A DNA stretch of 57,115 nucleotides from Pachysolen tannophilus NRRL Y-2460 (lineage: Eukaryota), in assembly GCA_001661245.1 (NCBI GenBank), contig KV454017.1, forward strand, positions 1,023,903 through 1,081,017. Direction: 5' to 3'. Made by a program: the position numbers and the translations under genes. Under the pieces are notes generated by a model. The model was not told where the DNA came from, did no database searches, and saw only the letters and a list, made by a program, of their open reading frames with translations. Of this stretch, positions 1 through 47,848 are shown piece after piece (the stretch's first letter is position 1; each line of letters opens with the position of its first letter).

Positions 1-3666
<3,666 letters not shown>

Positions 3667-20377: not shown

Positions 20378-20597
20378 ATATTTTATAGAGGAATTGAGAG
20401 ATTTTATTATGATTTATATGTTTTTTTCTTTTTGGGGTATATTTTATATTGTAAAAAAAAAAATAGAAAATATATATAAAAAAACAAACCATTTGATTGA
20501 TAACAAGAAAAAGGTAAAGNAAAAAAAAAAAAGTTAAAACATTTTTGGAAAAAAATGGGTTATTAATTAATATTTATTTATTTATATTGTAGATTAA

Positions 20598-21907
20598 ATG
20601 TCTGAGAGAGTAACATTGATTCCTTTAATAATACGAGATAAGTCGACTTTGGATATTATAGAAGGAGATGATAAGTTATATATTCATGTAATTGATTTAG
20701 ATAAATCAAGTGATGGTGAGAACAAGTTGAAAAATCCAGATGTGATTTTTAAAGAAATACAATATATAAATTCTAATATTGAAACACCAAATCGAATATT
20801 AGGTTTAGATTTGGATTTTAAAGAAGAAGAATTAAAATTGAACAATGATAAATCATTAAATAATAATTTTAAAATTAATTTACAAATAGAGGCAACTACA
20901 GGTATTTTAAATTTTTGTCAAAAAATAAATAATCAATTAGCAATAAATGAGATTAAATCAAAATCTTTTAATTTTAATGAAAAATTTCCTAAAGATGATG
21001 AATATTTTTTAAAATTTTTATGGTTTTATTTATTAAAAGGTTCATATGATTTATTAGAAGATTATTCTATAAAAAGTATCTTAACATGTGATTATGGTAA
21101 AGAAGAAGAAGAAGGTGATTTAGAAATTGTTATAACCAATAAAAATGAATTTGATATAACTTTAGCTACAATTAATTTAAAGCAAGATAAGAATTTAAAA
21201 ATTGATCTTTTCCAATGGTTTGATCTTAGTATTCAAGTTCAAGATTATAATTTTAGGAAAATGATTTCCAATTTATATCATGAGAATTTTTTACTTAAAT
21301 TTGAAAAAAAAATCTTATTGATGAGAATAAAAATTATGAGAAAAATCTTGAAATAATTAAAAAAGATGTTTTAAAATTTTTAGAAATATTAAATAATAAG
21401 AAATCAAAAATTTTAGAATTAGAACAAGAGAATTTTACAACTAATGAGAATTTAAAATTATTGAATAAGAAAAGATTAGAAAAGGATAAGTATGATCTTG
21501 ATAAATCTGTTATTGATATAACCGATTTATCAAATGAAATTGAAAACGCCAATCCAGAAATAACAACAGGTATTGATTCTTTACCGCAAACTCTAGGCCT
21601 GCAAACTGTGGGCCCAGAAGCTCTAGGCCCACAAACGCTGGAAGTTCTGTCCCCAGGCACACCACCATTGCCATCGCCGCCAAGGAAAAAAATGAAATTT
21701 AAAAAGGAAAACGATGATTATGCCGAACGCACACGACCTTTATCTGATTTTAAAAATTCCAGTAATCTGGATCAAATTATTGTTAACCAACCTTTACATA
21801 CTTTTCCAATAAAACCAGCCCAAAAAAAAAATTCCCAATCCAGTAGCAAAAATAACACAGACACCGCAGACACCGATACCGAGATTGATACCGAGTATAG
21901 TAGTTAG
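20598..21907 (+). CDS. LIF1: XRCC4/Lif1 family NHEJ factor, interrupted by a -1 frameshift at A9 (21304-21312); about 436 aa if repaired
   Basis: After the shift the frame reads KFLEILNNKKSKILELE, matching the XRCC4/Lif1 ligase-IV-binding motif (LNEKK.KI..L). It also has an NLS-like PPRKKMK and an acidic DTDTEIDTE tail. Confidence 0.7.
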
Positions 21908-22928
21908 TTATCCGTATGGGAAAACAGAAAAAAAGAAAAAAAAAGGGGGAAAAAAAAAAAAGGTAAAATTTTCGGTTCAGCAAGAACAAGGCTTAAGGGG
22001 AAAAATTATATAAAGAGAAAATAGGCTATGATGTAATAAACCGATGAACTTCTCCGCGACATCTTCATAACGTCTTCGCGACTTCTCCGCGACTTTTCCA
22101 ATACTTTCCCATAACTTTTTTAAACGTTTTACCTTGTTTTTCATTGTTTTATATATATATATATATATATTATATACATCAGTTTAAACCTATACGATCT
22201 TCTCCATATCGATCTCCGGAAAAGGAAACTCTCCTACTTTGAACAGCGCTTAACTTTTTTTCTTTAAAATGTTATTTAATTATTATTTAAATTAATACAT
22301 TATTATTAAATATTTATATATATATATATATATATATATAAATTTAATTGTTTTTTTTTTTTTTTATTTTTTTTTTTTTAATAAAAAAAAGTATCAATTT
22401 CAGCTTCTGATAATATTTTATATAAATTATCATCCACTTTAGTTCATTCGTTTTTTTACTTTTATTTTCAATTCGATCTTATTATATTTAGCTGAGAAAC
22501 AATTTTTTTTATTTTTTTATTTTTTTTCTTTTTTTCTTTTTTCTTTGTTTTGCTTAAAAAAAAAAATTTTTTTTTTTTTTAATACAATTTTTCACGTTGC
22601 GTTCATTTCAGTTTAAATAATACTGTACTACTGGTGGTTTTTAATATTGATACTAAAAAGAAGGTAGAGTACGAATTATTCTTTATTTAGATCTTTATTC
22701 TTTATTATTGAATAAAGTACCCTTGCAGGTGGAATTAAAAGAGATTTTTTTTTTTCTTTTTTGATTTTGATTTTGTTTTTGCAGATTGAAAAGCAAGAGA
22801 AAGTAAAGTAAATCTTTTCATTCAATTTGATTTCATTCGCTTCTACATTTGCTACAAATATATTTTGTTTGTCTGTTTGTTTGTTTTTATTAAATTTCCT
22901 TCTCATTATCACCACTATTAATATTATA

Positions 22929-25151
22929 ATGTCATACCCATTCACTAGTTATGCTCAAGAGTTATATTCTCAACCACAAAGTGGTGCTGCTATTATACCT
23001 CAACATCTTATGATGCAATCCCCTTATTTGTCACAAAGCAGGTTTCCTCCACCACCTCCAACTGGTAATTTTTATGCACCTCCACATGGTGGGATACAAG
23101 CAAATAATTCCCATCCAAGTTTGCTTAAGCATGGAAGTAATAGTAATGGGAGTGCAAGTGCCAATGGCAATAGCAATGGTAATAGTAATGGCCATGGTCA
23201 TGGCGGCCACGGGAATTCCAATGCCAATGCCAATGGCAGTGGGAGTGGGAATGTCAGTCTAAATGCCAATGTCAACGGTAATGCCAATGCTAATGCCAAC
23301 AACGGTAATGCGAATAGCGGTGTCAATGCTGGGGCTTCAAGTGATGCTGCTGCTGCTGCCCATGCTGCTGGGGCTACCATTAATGGACATGGCGGTATAA
23401 ATAATCCAAATTATTATAGCAACAATAATAGTAATATCAATATTGTAATGCAGGAAGATCAGTATCTGGATTATAATTCCAATGGTCATGATTATGGTAA
23501 TGGTGGCGCAATGCAAGAATATTTAAATTATGAAGATTATGGTTCAAATGGACAATTAAGGCTGGGCAAAAATCTGAATTTACCACCAAATGGAGCAAAT
23601 GGGTTTCAACAACAAGGTGCTCCATCTAGAACCGTTTATTTAGGTAATATACCAAGTGATATTACTCCAAAAGAATTATTGGATCATGTTAGATCAGGTG
23701 TTATAGAAAATGTAAAGATTTTACCTGCTAAAAACTGCGCCTTTATTTCATTTTTAGATGAAAGTTCAGCATTATTATTTCATTCTGATGCAATTTTGAA
23801 AAGGTTAACCATTAAACAAAATGATATTAGAATTGGTTGGGGTAAAAATTCACAATTACAACCCGTTGTATTAAATGCTGTTAATAGGTATGGTGCAACA
23901 AGAAATGTATATTTAGGAAATTTATCACCAGATATTACTGAAGAAGAATTGGAAAATGATTTAAAAGATTTTGGTCCTATTGATACTATAAAAATTATTC
24001 CAGAAAAGAAAATTGCTTTTGTACATTTTACAAGTATTCTTACAGCTATAAGACTTGTTCAAAATTTACCAATAAATGAAAAATATCAAGACAAAAAAAT
24101 TTTTTATGGTAAAGATCGTTGTGCTTTTATAACAAAGACTCAACAACATAATGCAGCACAATATTTGGGCTTGAATCCAAATTATGAACATCTTATAACA
24201 AATGCTGATAGAGATTTTATCTCAACTGCACTTGTACAGCAATCTACCGCAGCAGCAGCTATTGCAACATCTGCTGGAGGTGCCAATAATTTGGGTAATA
24301 GAACTGTTTACTTGGGTAATTTGCATCCGGATTCTACCATTGAAGAAATTTGTAACGTTGTTCGTGGTGGAATTTTACAAAATGTCAGATTAATATCGGA
24401 AAGGCATGTTTGTTTCATCACTTTTATAGATCCAATTGCTGCTGCACAATTTTTTGCAATGGCTAGTTTACATGGATTAATCATCCATAATAGAAAAATT
24501 AAAATTGGTTGGGGTAAGCATAGTGGTCCTTTAAGTAATGCTTTAACCTTAGCTGTTGGAAATGGTGCTAGTAGGAATATCTACGTTGGTGGGTTGGAAT
24601 TAGGAGATGAACAGGAAATAGATGAGGAAGTGGAGTTCGATGAGAAAAGTAACATAGATTTGAATAATGAAATTGCAAAAGAACAAGATGAAGAAAATAA
24701 GGAGACTGAATCTCAAACACAAGAAAATGGTATTGAAATCCCTTCGTCAGTGAAGACGGAACATGGAGAATCCAAATCATCAAAAATAGTTTACACTGCC
24801 TCAAAATTGCGCAATGATTTTGGAGAGTTTGGTGAAATTGAACAAATTAATTTCTATATTGAGAAAAATTGTGCTTTTGTAAACTTCACAAACATTTCTA
24901 ATGCTATTAAGGCAATAGATGGTATTAAGTATAATAAAGATTACGAGAATTTGAAAATTAATTTTGGAAAAGATAGATGTGGTAATATACCTAGACAATT
25001 CCAAAACGGTTCTTCATCTGGTGAAATTAATAACAGCAATAACTTACGTTTCAAGGGATCTATTGGAAAAGAAGGTGAATTTACGCATGATGGTTCTTTC
25101 AGTGATTTAAATGGTAATATCAATACTGAAGATTTTTTAGAAGACAATTAA
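22929..25151 (+). CDS. MRN1: Four-RRM RNA-binding protein with N/G/A-rich low-complexity N-terminus
   Basis: SRTVYLGN...LLFHSDAILKRL...IGWGK, TRNVYLGNL, YGKDRC, GNRTVYLGNL, INFGKDRC; first ATG at 22929. Confidence 0.88.
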   Translation: MSYPFTSYAQELYSQPQSGAAIIPQHLMMQSPYLSQSRFPPPPPTGNFYAPPHGGIQANNSHPSLLKHGSNSNGSASANGNSNGNSNGHGHGGHGNSNANANGSGSGNVSLNANVNGNANANANNGNANSGVNAGASSDAAAAAHAAGATINGHGGINNPNYYSNNNSNINIVMQEDQYLDYNSNGHDYGNGGAMQEYLNYEDYGSNGQLRLGKNLNLPPNGANGFQQQGAPSRTVYLGNIPSDITPKELLDHVRSGVIENVKILPAKNCAFISFLDESSALLFHSDAILKRLTIKQNDIRIGWGKNSQLQPVVLNAVNRYGATRNVYLGNLSPDITEEELENDLKDFGPIDTIKIIPEKKIAFVHFTSILTAIRLVQNLPINEKYQDKKIFYGKDRCAFITKTQQHNAAQYLGLNPNYEHLITNADRDFISTALVQQSTAAAAIATSAGGANNLGNRTVYLGNLHPDSTIEEICNVVRGGILQNVRLISERHVCFITFIDPIAAAQFFAMASLHGLIIHNRKIKIGWGKHSGPLSNALTLAVGNGASRNIYVGGLELGDEQEIDEEVEFDEKSNIDLNNEIAKEQDEENKETESQTQENGIEIPSSVKTEHGESKSSKIVYTASKLRNDFGEFGEIEQINFYIEKNCAFVNFTNISNAIKAIDGIKYNKDYENLKINFGKDRCGNIPRQFQNGSSSGEINNSNNLRFKGSIGKEGEFTHDGSFSDLNGNINTEDFLEDN

Positions 25152-25286
25152 AAGACATGATAACTTAAAAATAAAATACTAAAAAGACAAATAGAAAAAA
25201 AAAATTAAAAAAAACAAAAAAAAACAAAAAAAAAAGAAAAATAAAGAACTTCGTATGCTAGATCTTGCATTTTGTTAATCTCTCTA

Positions 25287-26060
25287 TCTTTAGAGTTAAG
25301 AAAAAAAATTTATAAATTGGCCGAGATACATGATTTTATAATAGTTGAAGATGATCCTTATGGGTATTTAATAATGCCTCCTTATAAAGATTTTAAATTA
25401 GGAAACGTAACTCTTGATATAACTCCAGAAGATTACGTCTCCAAATTATTACCATCATCATATTTGACTATAGATACAGTTGGACGTGTCATCAGGTGTG
25501 AATCTTTTTCTAAAATTTTTGCACCAGGTTTACGTTTGGGATTCATTGTTTGTCATAAAGAATTTACGCAAAGAATTAATATATATGGTGGTATTACTAC
25601 TGGGTTTTCTCTGGGTGTTTCCCAAATGTTAGTTACAAATACTATTGATCAGCTTGGTGGTTTTAATGGCTGGATAGAATGGTTGATCAAACTTAGAAAT
25701 GAGTACACATATAGGAGAAATGCAATGTTAGATATATTGTATAATTCAAAAGCATTCAAAAATGGCTTGATCGATCCAATTGATCCAAATTGTGGAATGT
25801 TTGTCATTGTTATTGTGAAATTTAACAGACCCGAAACAGAATATAAAGAATTGATACAGAAATTGATATATAAGACAATTGAAAATGGTGTGAATGTTGT
25901 TCCTGGAACAAACATGATGTTTGATGAAAAATCTATTTCTCGTGCTAATTTTATGAGATTGACTTTTTCTACATTAGAAGACAATGACGAAATTTCTGAA
26001 GCAACAAAAAGGTTTACTAAATCAATAGAAGAATTTTTCAGTGATTTACAAATTGAATAG
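25287..26060 (+). pseudogene. ARO9: C-terminal half of aromatic aminotransferase II (inverted relative to its N-terminal half)
   Basis: SLELRKKIY..IIVEDDPYGYL, DTVGRVIRCESFSKIFAPGLRLG (PLP lysine). No proper start codon; homology begins exactly where the minus-strand half ends. Confidence 0.85.
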
Positions 26061-26419
26061 CTTTAAATTTTTGATTTTAGAGATTTTTATTTCAATTGTA
26101 TCAAATCCATAAATTTATATAAAAGTAAAAAAAGTAAATTGAACAGTTTTTTAGGTTATTTTTGACAAATAAAAAGGTAAAAACTAAAAATATTGTTCAA
26201 ATATCAAATGATAAGAAAAATTTTTATAATAAAGACAAAAATCAAATTGAAGAATAAAAAAATTTATGAAACAGAACTGAAACAAGTAGAATGCAGATTT
26301 TTTTATAAAAAATAGAAGTTTTTCTTTTTTTTTTTTTCCTTGTTTTTCTGACTTTATCTATCCGTTGACAGGAAATCCAGTTCAATATGTATATAGATCA
26401 TTATTGTACATATAATGAT

Positions 26420-27163
26420 TTGTGTTAAACCAGAAGGATTTTGACCATTACAAATGGTGTATAAACCTTTTGGTTTCTTTAAACCAGGATAATATTTAGA
26501 CCAGTTTTCCAACAAATCTTTCAAGCTTTCATAATGAATACCTTCACCATAAAAATCTAATTTTACTGGAATTGGCATTCCACCAAAATTGGTTACTTGT
26601 TGACAAAAAGGTTTATAGGTAAATTCTTCTACCAAGAAAGTATCACCTTCATCAACGAGTAATTCAGCTATTCTATGTAAACTATTACCACTACCATTGG
26701 TAAGAGTTATATCATAATTTCTAAAAGCTGGCTTGTTTGTCTTTTCAATAAATTCAAAAGTAAAATCCAACATTGGCTTTAACCCGGCTGTATGAGCATA
26801 TTGAAGACCTTTATCAATACCAATACATTGCTCTTTATTAGAAGTCCGATTTATTGTAAAAGAAAATGAATTTTCCTTTTGATTTAAACTATCAATTGAA
26901 TCTGCAGGAGTCAATAACTGGGAATTAACACGATCTGATTCACTGGAAATTTCTGATCTTTTCCCATAAAAGGGAGTATCTGTAACCTCTACTTGTAAAG
27001 AATGGACCGGGAAAAACTCATGATAAGGTTCACCTCCAGCCAAAGATATCGGGTTAGGATGAGGTTTAATACTCTCAGGAATAGAGTCCGGCAAAAACCC
27101 CAGAAAAGGTATTCTACCAGCACTTCTTTTGGAAATCAAATGCAGCAAAGGAAAACTTGTCAT
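26420..27163 (-). pseudogene. ARO9: N-terminal half of aromatic aminotransferase II (ORF runs on to a stop at 26354 with 21 non-homologous residues)
   Basis: ISLAGGEP..FFP, LQYA..AG, LTNGSG, LVEEFTY, KPKGLYTICNGQNPSGLTQ, then abrupt loss of similarity. Confidence 0.85.
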
Positions 27164-27347
27164 CTTATATATATATATATGAATATTTGAATATATATTA
27201 AAAAATCAAGAACAAAATTGAACTAAATCTTTATCTTATATACTTTTTCATTATCTATATATGCACTTTGCCATATATGTACGGCTAATTGCAATGTTTA
27301 AATCCATAATTATCAAAACAATTTTCCTTATTAGGCAAGTACGACCG

Positions 27348-27369
27348 TGACTCATTTACCGGTAAATGA
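27348..27369. promoter_or_regulatory. Gcn4-type site TGACTCA overlapping an 18-bp palindrome in the ARO9/TPN1 divergent promoter
   Basis: TGACTCA at 27348-27354; TCATTTACCGGTAAATGA at 27352-27369. Confidence 0.6.
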
Positions 27370-27756
27370 CAGTAGAAGCCGAAAAGGTATTAAAGATGTC
27401 AAACCCGATATGCATAGTAAATATCATGTTTGACAGCGGCCAAAAATGGGTTTTCAGTGGAAAAAATCTTTTAACAAATCCGATTGAAAAACTTGGCAAA
27501 TCTGGTGATATACTTTATTGTCCATTAGTCAACAGATGTTTCGAGGAAATCATTTTTAATTGTAAGTTTATTTCATTTTTTTATTTTTCATTTTGAAATA
27601 TTAATGATTGAGTCCAATAGCTCATAGTAATATATATTTGAGCTTATTATTGTTAGTTTATTAAGTATATATTATATTTTCCAGATACTTTGCAAATTTA
27701 AAGAAACGGCAGCACCCCTCACCCCTCTTTATATATATATATATCTTTTGGTAAAA

Positions 27757-29382
27757 ATGGGATCGTTGAGTCACAGTAAATTAGACTTGGATAAGGAAGA
27801 GGTTGAAGAGATAGTTTCAGGTTCTGGTACGGAATCTGTTAAAGAATTTGTTTCTTTTAAAAAAAATGCATGTGGTTTAGTGGTGAATAAGTTAAATAAG
27901 ATTTCCACGACTTTAGATTCGTTTGGTGCAGAGACTAGAGGTATTGATAGAGTGCTACCAGAGGAAAGAGAGAAAAATTTTACAAAAGTTTGTATTCAGG
28001 TTTTAGGATTATGGTTATCGGGCTGTGGTGGGTTAACTTCCATGTCATCATATTTTTTAGGTGCAACTGTTTATGGTTTAGGTTTAAAAGATTCTTTAAT
28101 AAGTGGATTAGTATCTACTAGTATAGGATGCGCTATTGCTGCATATTTTTCAATGATGGGACCCAGATCTGGGTGTAGACAAATAGTTGGTGCTAGGTTT
28201 CTCTTTGGGTATTGGTTTGTTAAATTTGTTGCATTAGTGGCAATTATTGGTACTTTAGGTTGGAGTGTTACCAACTGTGTCTTGGGTGGACAAATATTAG
28301 CTGCTATATCTGATGATAAAGTTCCAATAGAAGTCGGTATAGTTATTATATCAATTTTTTCATTTTTTGTTGCAGTTTTTGGTATTAAACAGTTATTAAG
28401 AGTAGAAACATTTTTATCAGTACCTGTTTTCATTGGTGTCATATTATTATACATTGTTTCTGAAAGAAGGTTTGATTATCCGGATACTGTTTCTACAGGT
28501 GATTCTATAACAAATAAAGGTGATTTTTTAACTTTTTTTGCCTTATGTTACTCTGTCACTGCTACATGGGGAACTATGGCTTCTGATTATTATATTCTTT
28601 TCCCTGAAAATTCCTCAGATTTAACTATTTTTTGTATAACTTTTTTTGGAACTTTGTTTCCAACAATTTTCGGTGCAGTAATTGGTATATTAATTGGAAA
28701 CAGTTCATATTATTATGAACCTTGGAATGAAGCTTATGAACAACTTGGTATTGGTGGATTATTAAATGAATGTTTTAAACCATGGAATGGGTTTGGAAAA
28801 TTTGTCTTGATTGTGTTATTCCTTTCCCTTATTTCAAACAATATTATGAATACATATTCTGCTGCATTTTCACTGCAACTTTCTGCTGTACTGATTTCCA
28901 AAATTCCTAGATGGTTTTTATGTATTGCAATCAGTTCAGTAACAATGATTGCAGCTTTAGTTGGAAGAAATAAATTTTCTACAATATTAGGTAATTTCTT
29001 ACCCATGTTAGGATACTGGGTATCTATTTATTTTATATTATTATTGGAAGAGAATACAATATTTCGCAGAAAAAGGTTTCGTCATTTATTTATTAAAGAA
29101 TTTGAAAACGAAAAGAAATATTATGAAAATAATGAAAATAATTATAATTTTACAATTTGGAATGATTCTAGTAGATTAACTAATGGTTTTGCTGCAGGTA
29201 TTTCATTTCTTATAGGGGTTGCAGGTGCAATTTTAGGTATGGCTCAACTGTATTATATTGGGCCTATTGCTAAAAATCTTGGAGATTATGGTGGAGATCT
29301 AGGAATGTGGATCAGTATGGGTTTTAGTGGACTTGTGTACCCCTTTTTAAGATATTTTGAATTGAAAAAATTTGGAAGATGA
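27757..29382 (+). CDS. TPN1: Vitamin B6 transporter (NCS1 purine-cytosine permease family)
   Basis: GLWLSGCGGL, MGPRSGCRQ, WSVTNCVLGGQ, ASDYY, NTYSAAF, GGDLGMW, and C-terminal RYFELKKFGR as in Tpn1. Confidence 0.9.
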   Translation: MGSLSHSKLDLDKEEVEEIVSGSGTESVKEFVSFKKNACGLVVNKLNKISTTLDSFGAETRGIDRVLPEEREKNFTKVCIQVLGLWLSGCGGLTSMSSYFLGATVYGLGLKDSLISGLVSTSIGCAIAAYFSMMGPRSGCRQIVGARFLFGYWFVKFVALVAIIGTLGWSVTNCVLGGQILAAISDDKVPIEVGIVIISIFSFFVAVFGIKQLLRVETFLSVPVFIGVILLYIVSERRFDYPDTVSTGDSITNKGDFLTFFALCYSVTATWGTMASDYYILFPENSSDLTIFCITFFGTLFPTIFGAVIGILIGNSSYYYEPWNEAYEQLGIGGLLNECFKPWNGFGKFVLIVLFLSLISNNIMNTYSAAFSLQLSAVLISKIPRWFLCIAISSVTMIAALVGRNKFSTILGNFLPMLGYWVSIYFILLLEENTIFRRKRFRHLFIKEFENEKKYYENNENNYNFTIWNDSSRLTNGFAAGISFLIGVAGAILGMAQLYYIGPIAKNLGDYGGDLGMWISMGFSGLVYPFLRYFELKKFGR

Positions 29383-40477: not shown

Positions 40478-41137
40478 TGGTGAAAAAAAAAAAAAAAAAG
40501 AATGTTTAATATATGATATGTTAATATTGTTAAAATATGATATCCATTATAAGTTGGTAAAACAACTGTGTATCTACACACGTATAATTGTAAGTTTAAA
40601 AATAAAACTGTACAAGTCCAAATCTATTCAACNNNNNNNNNNNNNNNNNNNNNNNNNNNNNNNNNNNNNNNNNNNNNNNNNNNNNNNNNNNNNNNNNNNN
40701 NNNNNNNNNNNNNNNNNNNNNNNNNNNNNNNNNNNNNNNNNNNNNNNNNNNNNNNNNNNNNNNNNNNNNNNNNNNNNNNNNNNNNNNNNNNNNNNNNNNN
40801 NNNNNNNNNNNNNNNNNNNNNNNNNNNNNNNNNNNNNNNNNNNNNNNNNNNNNNNNNNNNNNNNNNNNNNNNNNNNNNNNNNNNNNNNNNNNNNNNNNNN
40901 NNNNNNNNNNNNNNNNNNNNNNNNNNNNNNNNNNNNNNNNNNNNNNNNNNNNNNNNNNNNNNNNNNNNNNNNNNNNNNNNNNNTTTGGTGAAAAAAAAAA
41001 AAAAAGAATGTTTAATATATGATATGTTAATATTGTTAAAATATGATATCCATTATAAGTTGGTAAAACAACTGTGTATCTACACACGTATAATTGTAAG
41101 TTTAAAAATAAACTGTACAAGTCCAAATCTATTCAAC
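40478..41137. other. Assembly gap (N 40633-40983) flanked by a ~155-bp direct duplication
   Basis: 40478-40632 matches 40986-41137 apart from homopolymer lengths. Confidence 0.9.
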
Positions 41138-47626: not shown

Positions 47627-47848
47627 NNNNNNNNNNNNNNNNNNNNNNNNNNNNNNNNNNNNNNNNNNNNNNNNNNNNNNNNNNNNNNNNNNNNNNNNNN
47701 NNNNNNNNNNNNNNNNNNNNNNNNNNNNNNNNNNNNNNNNNNNNNNNNNNNNNNNNNNNNNNNNNNNNNNNNNNNNNNNNNNNNNNNNNNNNNNNNNNNN
47801 NNNNNNNNNNNNNNNNNNNNNNNNNNNNNNNNNNNNNNNNNNNNNNNN
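47627..47848. other. Assembly gap (N run) between long poly-T tracts
   Basis: 222 N bases flanked by homopolymers. Confidence 0.98.

Follow-up and report, generated by a model that had tools for sequence, protein, structure and literature searches.

In the deposited draft genome of Pachysolen tannophilus NRRL Y-2460 a gene for an ARO9-type aromatic aminotransferase is found as two halves on opposite strands, and turning one segment of 1133 bases around would make the gene whole. Does the organism carry this inversion, or does it exist only in the assembly? We have addressed this question in the window, by which we mean the complete stretch of 57,115 nucleotides that was analyzed, using the deposited sequence, homologous proteins and contigs built from public sequencing reads. 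Coordinates of the features discussed are collected in Table 1.

The split is as it had been outlined in the preliminary description, with a minus-strand half ending in GQNPSGLTQ and a plus-strand half starting with SLELRKKIY. Translation of the minus strand from 27163 to 26420 gives 248 residues from the initial M to the final Q with 0 stops, and translation of the plus strand from 25287 to 26060 gives 257 residues plus a stop codon, with no stop internally. As the assembly stands, the frame of the N-terminal half continues for 21 extra codons past 26420 and then meets a stop at 26354-26356. Flipping 25287-26419 generates a frame of 505 residues (248 + 257) with 0 internal stops and with no residue lost or gained, in agreement with the preliminary description. 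Its observation that the breakpoints share just 1 ambiguous letter also holds, and there is no inverted repeat at either of them. The bases of the segment that follow the stop codon would comprise the 3' untranslated and terminator region of ARO9.

Table 1. Positions in the window of the features at and around the split ARO9-type gene.
Feature	Position	Strand	Remarks
ARO9-type aminotransferase, C-terminal half	25287..26060	+	257 codons plus stop; translation, PF00155 and PDB chain 6hnv_A match
ARO9-type aminotransferase, N-terminal half	26420..27163	-	248 codons, start codon 27163..27161; translation and PDB chain 6hnd_A match
Region downstream of the stop codon, within the flipped segment	26061..26419	+	359 bases, 81% A+T (0.81)
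Flipped segment	25287..26419	none	1133 bases, in the orientation opposite to that of the public-read contigs
Left junction in the assembly form	25286..25287	none	unbridged by any contig piece shown
Right junction in the assembly form	26419..26420	none	unbridged by any contig piece shown
Near-palindrome	26397..26419	none	23 nt, with a perfect stem of 8 nt and a loop of 7 nt; lies directly inside the right breakpoint
A-rich low-complexity tract	about 25180..25252	none	repeat families D1-D6 and pairs I1-I25; Logan contigs break here (skipped repeat 25180-25250)
T-rich low-complexity tract	26313..26349	none	imperfect inverted counterpart of the A-rich tract; another site at which Logan contigs break (skipped repeat 26313-26349)
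Divergent intergenic region, from the ARO9 start to the purine/cytosine-type permease gene (PF02133)	27164..27630	none	undisturbed

The C-terminal half matches the Pfam family PF00155 (Aminotran_1_2) with an E value of 9.2e-08 and 32.1 bits (cut-off 19.7), over profile positions 170-357 of 361. When the N-terminal half was searched alone against Pfam there was no match at E <= 0.01; PF00155 is present in all of the full-length relatives from the protein collection. The best relatives carry the source names ARO9, aromatic amino acid aminotransferase II, and 'similar to S. cerevisiae YHR137W ARO9'. Of the full-length relatives in the protein collection, the Pachysolen tannophilus protein P0003 is the nearest, with 55% identity over the C-terminal half, and the N-terminal half is identical to its nearest full-length relative at 105 of 226 aligned positions. 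The closest known counterpart is Aro9 (aromatic aminotransferase II) of budding yeasts, represented by S. cerevisiae YHR137W and by the PDB chains 6hnd and 6hnv, which are named 'Aromatic-amino-acid:2-oxoglutarate transaminase'. The protein differs from Aro9 of budding yeasts in that the identity to the nearest full-length relative, taken over the C-terminal half, is only the 55% given above.

Comparison with PDB chains reveals how the halves fit together. Residues 7-248 of the N-terminal half correspond to residues 5-258 of 6hnd_A (E 2e-49), and residues 1-253 of the C-terminal half to residues 259-519 of both 6hnv_A and 6hnd_A (E 3.2e-63). The halves therefore abut at 258|259 of 6hnd/6hnv with neither gap nor overlap, and together cover 5-519. 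The same 6hnd/6hnv values may be set against those for the Aro8 chains 6hnb, 4je5 and 6s8w, which lie between 1.2e-17 and 4.5e-17 for the N-terminal half and between 1.2e-33 and 8e-29 for the C-terminal half. Judged by sequence, both halves appear to be far closer to the Aro9-type chains than to Aro8. We take 6hnd and 6hnv to represent the Aro9 that Kiliszek et al. 2019 described for Candida albicans. An S-F-S-K motif lies at residues 321-324 of the joined protein, within the C-terminal half, and aligns with the same motif of 6hnv_A; in this fold its K is the presumed Schiff-base lysine for PLP. According to PMC9290597, 6HNU is Candida albicans Aro8p and 4JE5 is S. cerevisiae Aro8, and Kiliszek et al. 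2019 is cited there for the C. albicans Aro8 and Aro9 structures.

We also joined the two translations in a script and aligned the product with 19 full-length homologues using MAFFT. There are 0 gaps within 15 columns on each side of the join in all 20 rows of the alignment. Since the halves meet exactly, both on the homologues and on a solved chain, not one residue has been lost or gained. Two halves free of stops at 29% G+C, with an exact join between them, have the look that would be expected of an intact gene that has been flipped only on paper.

The translations of the halves were made with the standard code, and we re-read them under table 26. Five CTG codons then read as alanine, none of them near the join. 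The single CTG of the C-terminal half (at residue 109 of that half) aligns with a serine of the Aro9-type chain, a position that suits a small residue. The protein collection holds a copy of the truncated frame, P0125 (269 residues, frame 26357-27163 on the minus strand), and this is the translation under table 26 and not under tables 1 or 12; the record has thus been treated as that of a CUG-Ala yeast. The gene would be an ordinary, intact ARO9-type orthologue of a CUG-Ala yeast, with a predicted function as aromatic transaminase. A near-identity search of the protein collection found the 269-residue frame in 1 contig only, the window's own record, which favors an assembly error. No 505-residue protein of this species was found in the collection, and a search with the C-terminal half for longer proteins reached 55% identity at best. 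The collection has only the truncated copy from the window, and so is silent on the form present in other assemblies.

A direct view of the junctions is provided by sequencing reads. Five public runs contain the region, with a share of words of 0.95-0.96, and no RNA run is among them. Four of these (X1-X4) come from one sample and date from 2010-2016, and the fifth (X5) comes from a second sample in a second study, of 2023. We compared the Logan contigs of X1, X3, X4 and X5 with positions 24300-27900 (3601 bases), leaving out X2. Rare variants are lost from such contigs, and allele fractions cannot be read from them. A contig of 4.1-5.2 kb in every one of the four runs follows the minus strand from 27900 to 26420, and its next position is 25287, from where it continues upward on the plus strand. 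This contig is record 3 in X1 (4157 nt, depth 251.5, left flank 272.3), record 8 in X3 (5211 nt, depth 99.1, left flank 104.6), record 13 in X4 (4171 nt, depth 243.3, left flank 265.8) and record 18 in X5 (4149 nt, depth 136.4, left flank 127.8). The whole 505-codon gene lies within a single contig in X1, X3 and X4, and within the overlapping records 18 and 19 in X5. The reciprocal join, which falls in the intergenic region and connects 25251-25285 to 26420-26350 on the opposite strand, is made by a small contig of 143-178 nt in each of the four runs (records 2, 7, 12 and 17), such that 26350-26420 adjoins 25251-25285 in the public-read contigs.

The joints have the same form in every run. They connect 25287 with 26420, and 25285/25286 with 26420/26421, on opposite strands in both cases, with zero letters between the two sides. 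Over the 3601 bases compared there were no base differences or indels with respect to the window in any of the four runs, and among the contig pieces listed for these runs there is no collinear crossing of 25286|25287 or 26419|26420. A de Bruijn contig consists only of words that are present in the reads, and the un-inverted junctions therefore physically exist. The contigs of four of four runs, from 2 samples and 2 studies, thus carry only the un-inverted form, within the resolution of such contigs; this is the outcome that the preliminary description had attached to a misassembly of a collinear gene.

From this we conclude that the split is probably an inversion-type assembly error and not a property of the genome, and that the organism probably carries an intact, collinear ARO9. 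The chromosome would hold one collinear ARO9-type gene of 505 codons, which is read from the minus strand and converges on the RRM-protein gene at its left. In the draft as deposited, 25287-26419, that is the C-terminal half together with the downstream bases, would stand in the wrong orientation. This reading supposes that the assembly was built from DNA like that of the runs compared, and that the flip arose in a computational step. The best-matching run may be the assembly's own sample, in which case the assembly is at odds with the very reads it came from. Over the region the two samples do not differ, and they may be one strain.

Might some of the reads derive from molecules in the orientation of the window? 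We recomputed the depth of the bins that contain the assembly junctions from the two un-inverted contigs alone, and the reported and recomputed depths are equal in 7 of 8 junction bins. At the left junction the un-inverted contigs explain all of the depth in X1 (247.5), X4 (238.6) and X5 (123.9), and at the right junction they do so in all four runs (246.8 in X1, 97.5 in X3, 235.6 in X4 and 92.0 in X5). With depth fully explained, no further contig, in the form of the window or any other, has been placed in those seven bins. The exception is the left bin of X3, where a depth of 110.2 is reported and 97.6 is expected. The difference comes from an extra contig that adds 12.6; it counts against an error in the assembly, and it leaves the window at 25354, which is not how a molecule in the form of the window would behave. 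In X1, X3 and X4 the small junction contig and its neighbors differ in depth by no more than about 10%. In X5 this contig (record 17) has a depth of 52.5 compared with about 128-136 for the neighbors, and this too counts against the error. It may be shallow as a result of its ends in the A tract.

These data bear on a second explanation, in which the assembler was faithful and the inversion is real, either private to the clone or DNA preparation that was sequenced or present in a minority of cells, having inactivated ARO9 very recently. We regard this as unlikely. In its favor, the reciprocity of the flip is exact, the ends share 1 letter and no bases have been lost or added, and a real event would require no odd behavior of the assembler; moreover a rare variant would be compatible with the Logan contigs. 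Against this, only the un-inverted form is seen in four of four runs (2 samples, 2 studies), there is no surplus depth in seven of the eight junction bins, and the end joining of two breaks usually costs or adds a few bases, none of which are seen here. Furthermore the un-inverted contigs are unbranched at the junctions, where branching would be expected were both forms abundant. If the DNA for the assembly came from a different preparation, the flip could be real in that preparation.

A real break might be sought in the local sequence. Palindromes are break-prone sites, and a near-palindrome abuts the right breakpoint. It is the only such hairpin within 25200-26500, and the probability that either breakpoint would abut one by chance is about 2.4%, which speaks for a real inversion. 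The calculated fold energy is -3.8 kcal/mol with a z of -0.79, so that thermodynamically it is unremarkable in comparison with shuffled sequences. We have not adopted the near-palindrome as the cause of the flip, as it folds no better than shuffled sequence, and the same result tells against a real inversion. The left junction of the assembly lies within a small hairpin with a z of -1.88, a weak signal that is equaled by 11 of 200 shuffles.

In the window, the A-rich tract and the T-rich tract make up an inverted repeat that is imperfect, with a best pair 33 nt long at 82%. This repeat is displaced by about 35 nt outward from the left breakpoint and by about 70 nt inward from the right one, and being offset from both it was rejected as what delimits the flip. 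Once the segment is un-inverted, the tracts become direct repeats about 105 nt apart. The near-palindrome, the exact reciprocity and the positions of the tracts are as compatible with a real break as with an artefact. An intron just before the C-terminal half was a further candidate, with GTATGC at 25253-25258 and an AG at 25292-25293. This was rejected, since the halves are on opposite strands, no more than 41 nt are spanned, the join is complete without an intron, and the contigs exhibit a direct join in the DNA.

The geometry of the split raises a further idea, that of a programmed or reversible inversion acting as a switch for ARO9, such that a culture would contain both orientations. The cut falls at a codon boundary and reversal would restore the gene perfectly. 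This resembles the bacterial invertons and the FLP system of the yeast 2-micron plasmid, in which the orientation of a segment likewise decides whether a gene is whole. Site-specific inversion switches of that kind need inverted sites at the ends of the segment, a recombinase, and both orientations in the population. None of these three features was found at the ARO9 locus. The segment ends lack inverted repeats, and the pair of A/T tracts does not bound the segment. A Pfam scan of the 25 other frames of at least 150 aa in the 57-kb window found no recombinase or integrase family, and the contigs of all four runs present a single orientation. Beyond the geometry nothing argues for such a switch, and we consider it very improbable. 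We give equally little credence to a variant in which a low-frequency, possibly reversible inversion, independent of repeats and with its right end at the near-palindrome, toggles ARO9, the assembler having reported the minority form.

The remaining possibility is an inversion fixed throughout the species that has made ARO9 a pseudogene. The intact gene is found in the contigs of 2 samples at the depth of the flanks, and neither half has a stop, both of which oppose it, and we attach next to no weight to this explanation. Three readings had been offered in the preliminary description: an assembly error, a loss-of-function inversion and a switch. The first of these is the one favored by our analysis, while the other two are unsupported by the contigs of four of four runs and by seven of eight bins.

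How, then, might an assembly error have come about? The window is a scaffolded draft, with runs of N at 20520 (1), 40633-40983 (351) and 47627-47848 (222). The single N at 20520 is at the head of a run of A, and the N runs mark a scaffolded draft that has been partly gap-closed. Inversion misassembly is usually caused by a small contig that is placed between gaps in the wrong orientation, or by an inverted repeat that exceeds the word size. No sign of either is visible at this locus. A mis-oriented contig needs ends at both junctions, yet it is at the A/T tracts that the Logan contigs are broken, and this counts against the error. Inversions are one of the classes of scaffold error that are counted with the GAGE scripts for four scaffolders in Tables 5-8 of PMC4262078, where the counts are, for example, 6 to 30 when summed over the S. 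aureus assemblies. In comparison with this class of misassembly in scaffolded short-read drafts, our locus is alike in having an orientation contradicted by the reads, a gapped scaffold and a short piece (1.13 kb). It is unlike them in that its junctions are without Ns or a repeat, are exactly reciprocal, and lie in unique sequence.

Reading the split as an error of assembly has consequences for the use of this record. In it, ARO9 is best treated as intact, and the truncated frame of 269 residues would then be the product of an artefact, not a pseudogene. It would be wrong to infer from it a loss of aromatic amino acid catabolism, of which this is the first step in the Ehrlich pathway, in this CUG-Ala yeast. 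More generally, where an inversion splits a gene with codon precision and the halves are undecayed, it should be tested against reads first. In the present case the junction-bridging contigs of public runs settled most of the question.

The split gene is set in an A+T-rich (29% G+C) stretch of ordinary budding-yeast chromosome. Neighboring frames encode an ARO1-type pentafunctional protein, AP-2 alpha adaptin, DNA polymerase alpha subunit B, a TMEM16-type protein, an RRM protein, a purine/cytosine-type permease and others, with near full-length Pfam coverage. Two frames of 252 and 200 codons on the plus strand at 20598-21907 overlap at 21305-21356 in different reading frames, across a run of nine A at 21304-21312. 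They could be one gene broken by an error of homopolymer length or by a real frameshift. Neither had a Pfam match, and a search for longer relatives with P0123 found none in the protein collection.

The divergent region between ARO9 and the permease gene is a putative promoter region. It contains a TGACTCA heptamer at 27348-27354, flanked by CCG triplets, which we take to be the consensus of Gcn4-type bZIP factors. At two short TA-rich stretches, 27166-27186 and 27571-27746, several contigs from all four runs touch the window and then diverge from it. These stretches, which lie in the intergenic region and where the permease frame begins, have the appearance of dispersed repeats that are short and of low complexity.

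The RRM-protein gene (22812-25151, plus strand), which is convergent with ARO9, encodes a long N-terminal region of low complexity that is rich in Asn, Gly, Ala and Ser. The ARO1-type frame lies at 1-3666 on the plus strand and is open at its 5' end. It includes EPSP synthase, shikimate kinase, dehydroquinase and shikimate dehydrogenase domains, and is located about 21 kb from ARO9, so that two aromatic amino acid genes are found in one window.
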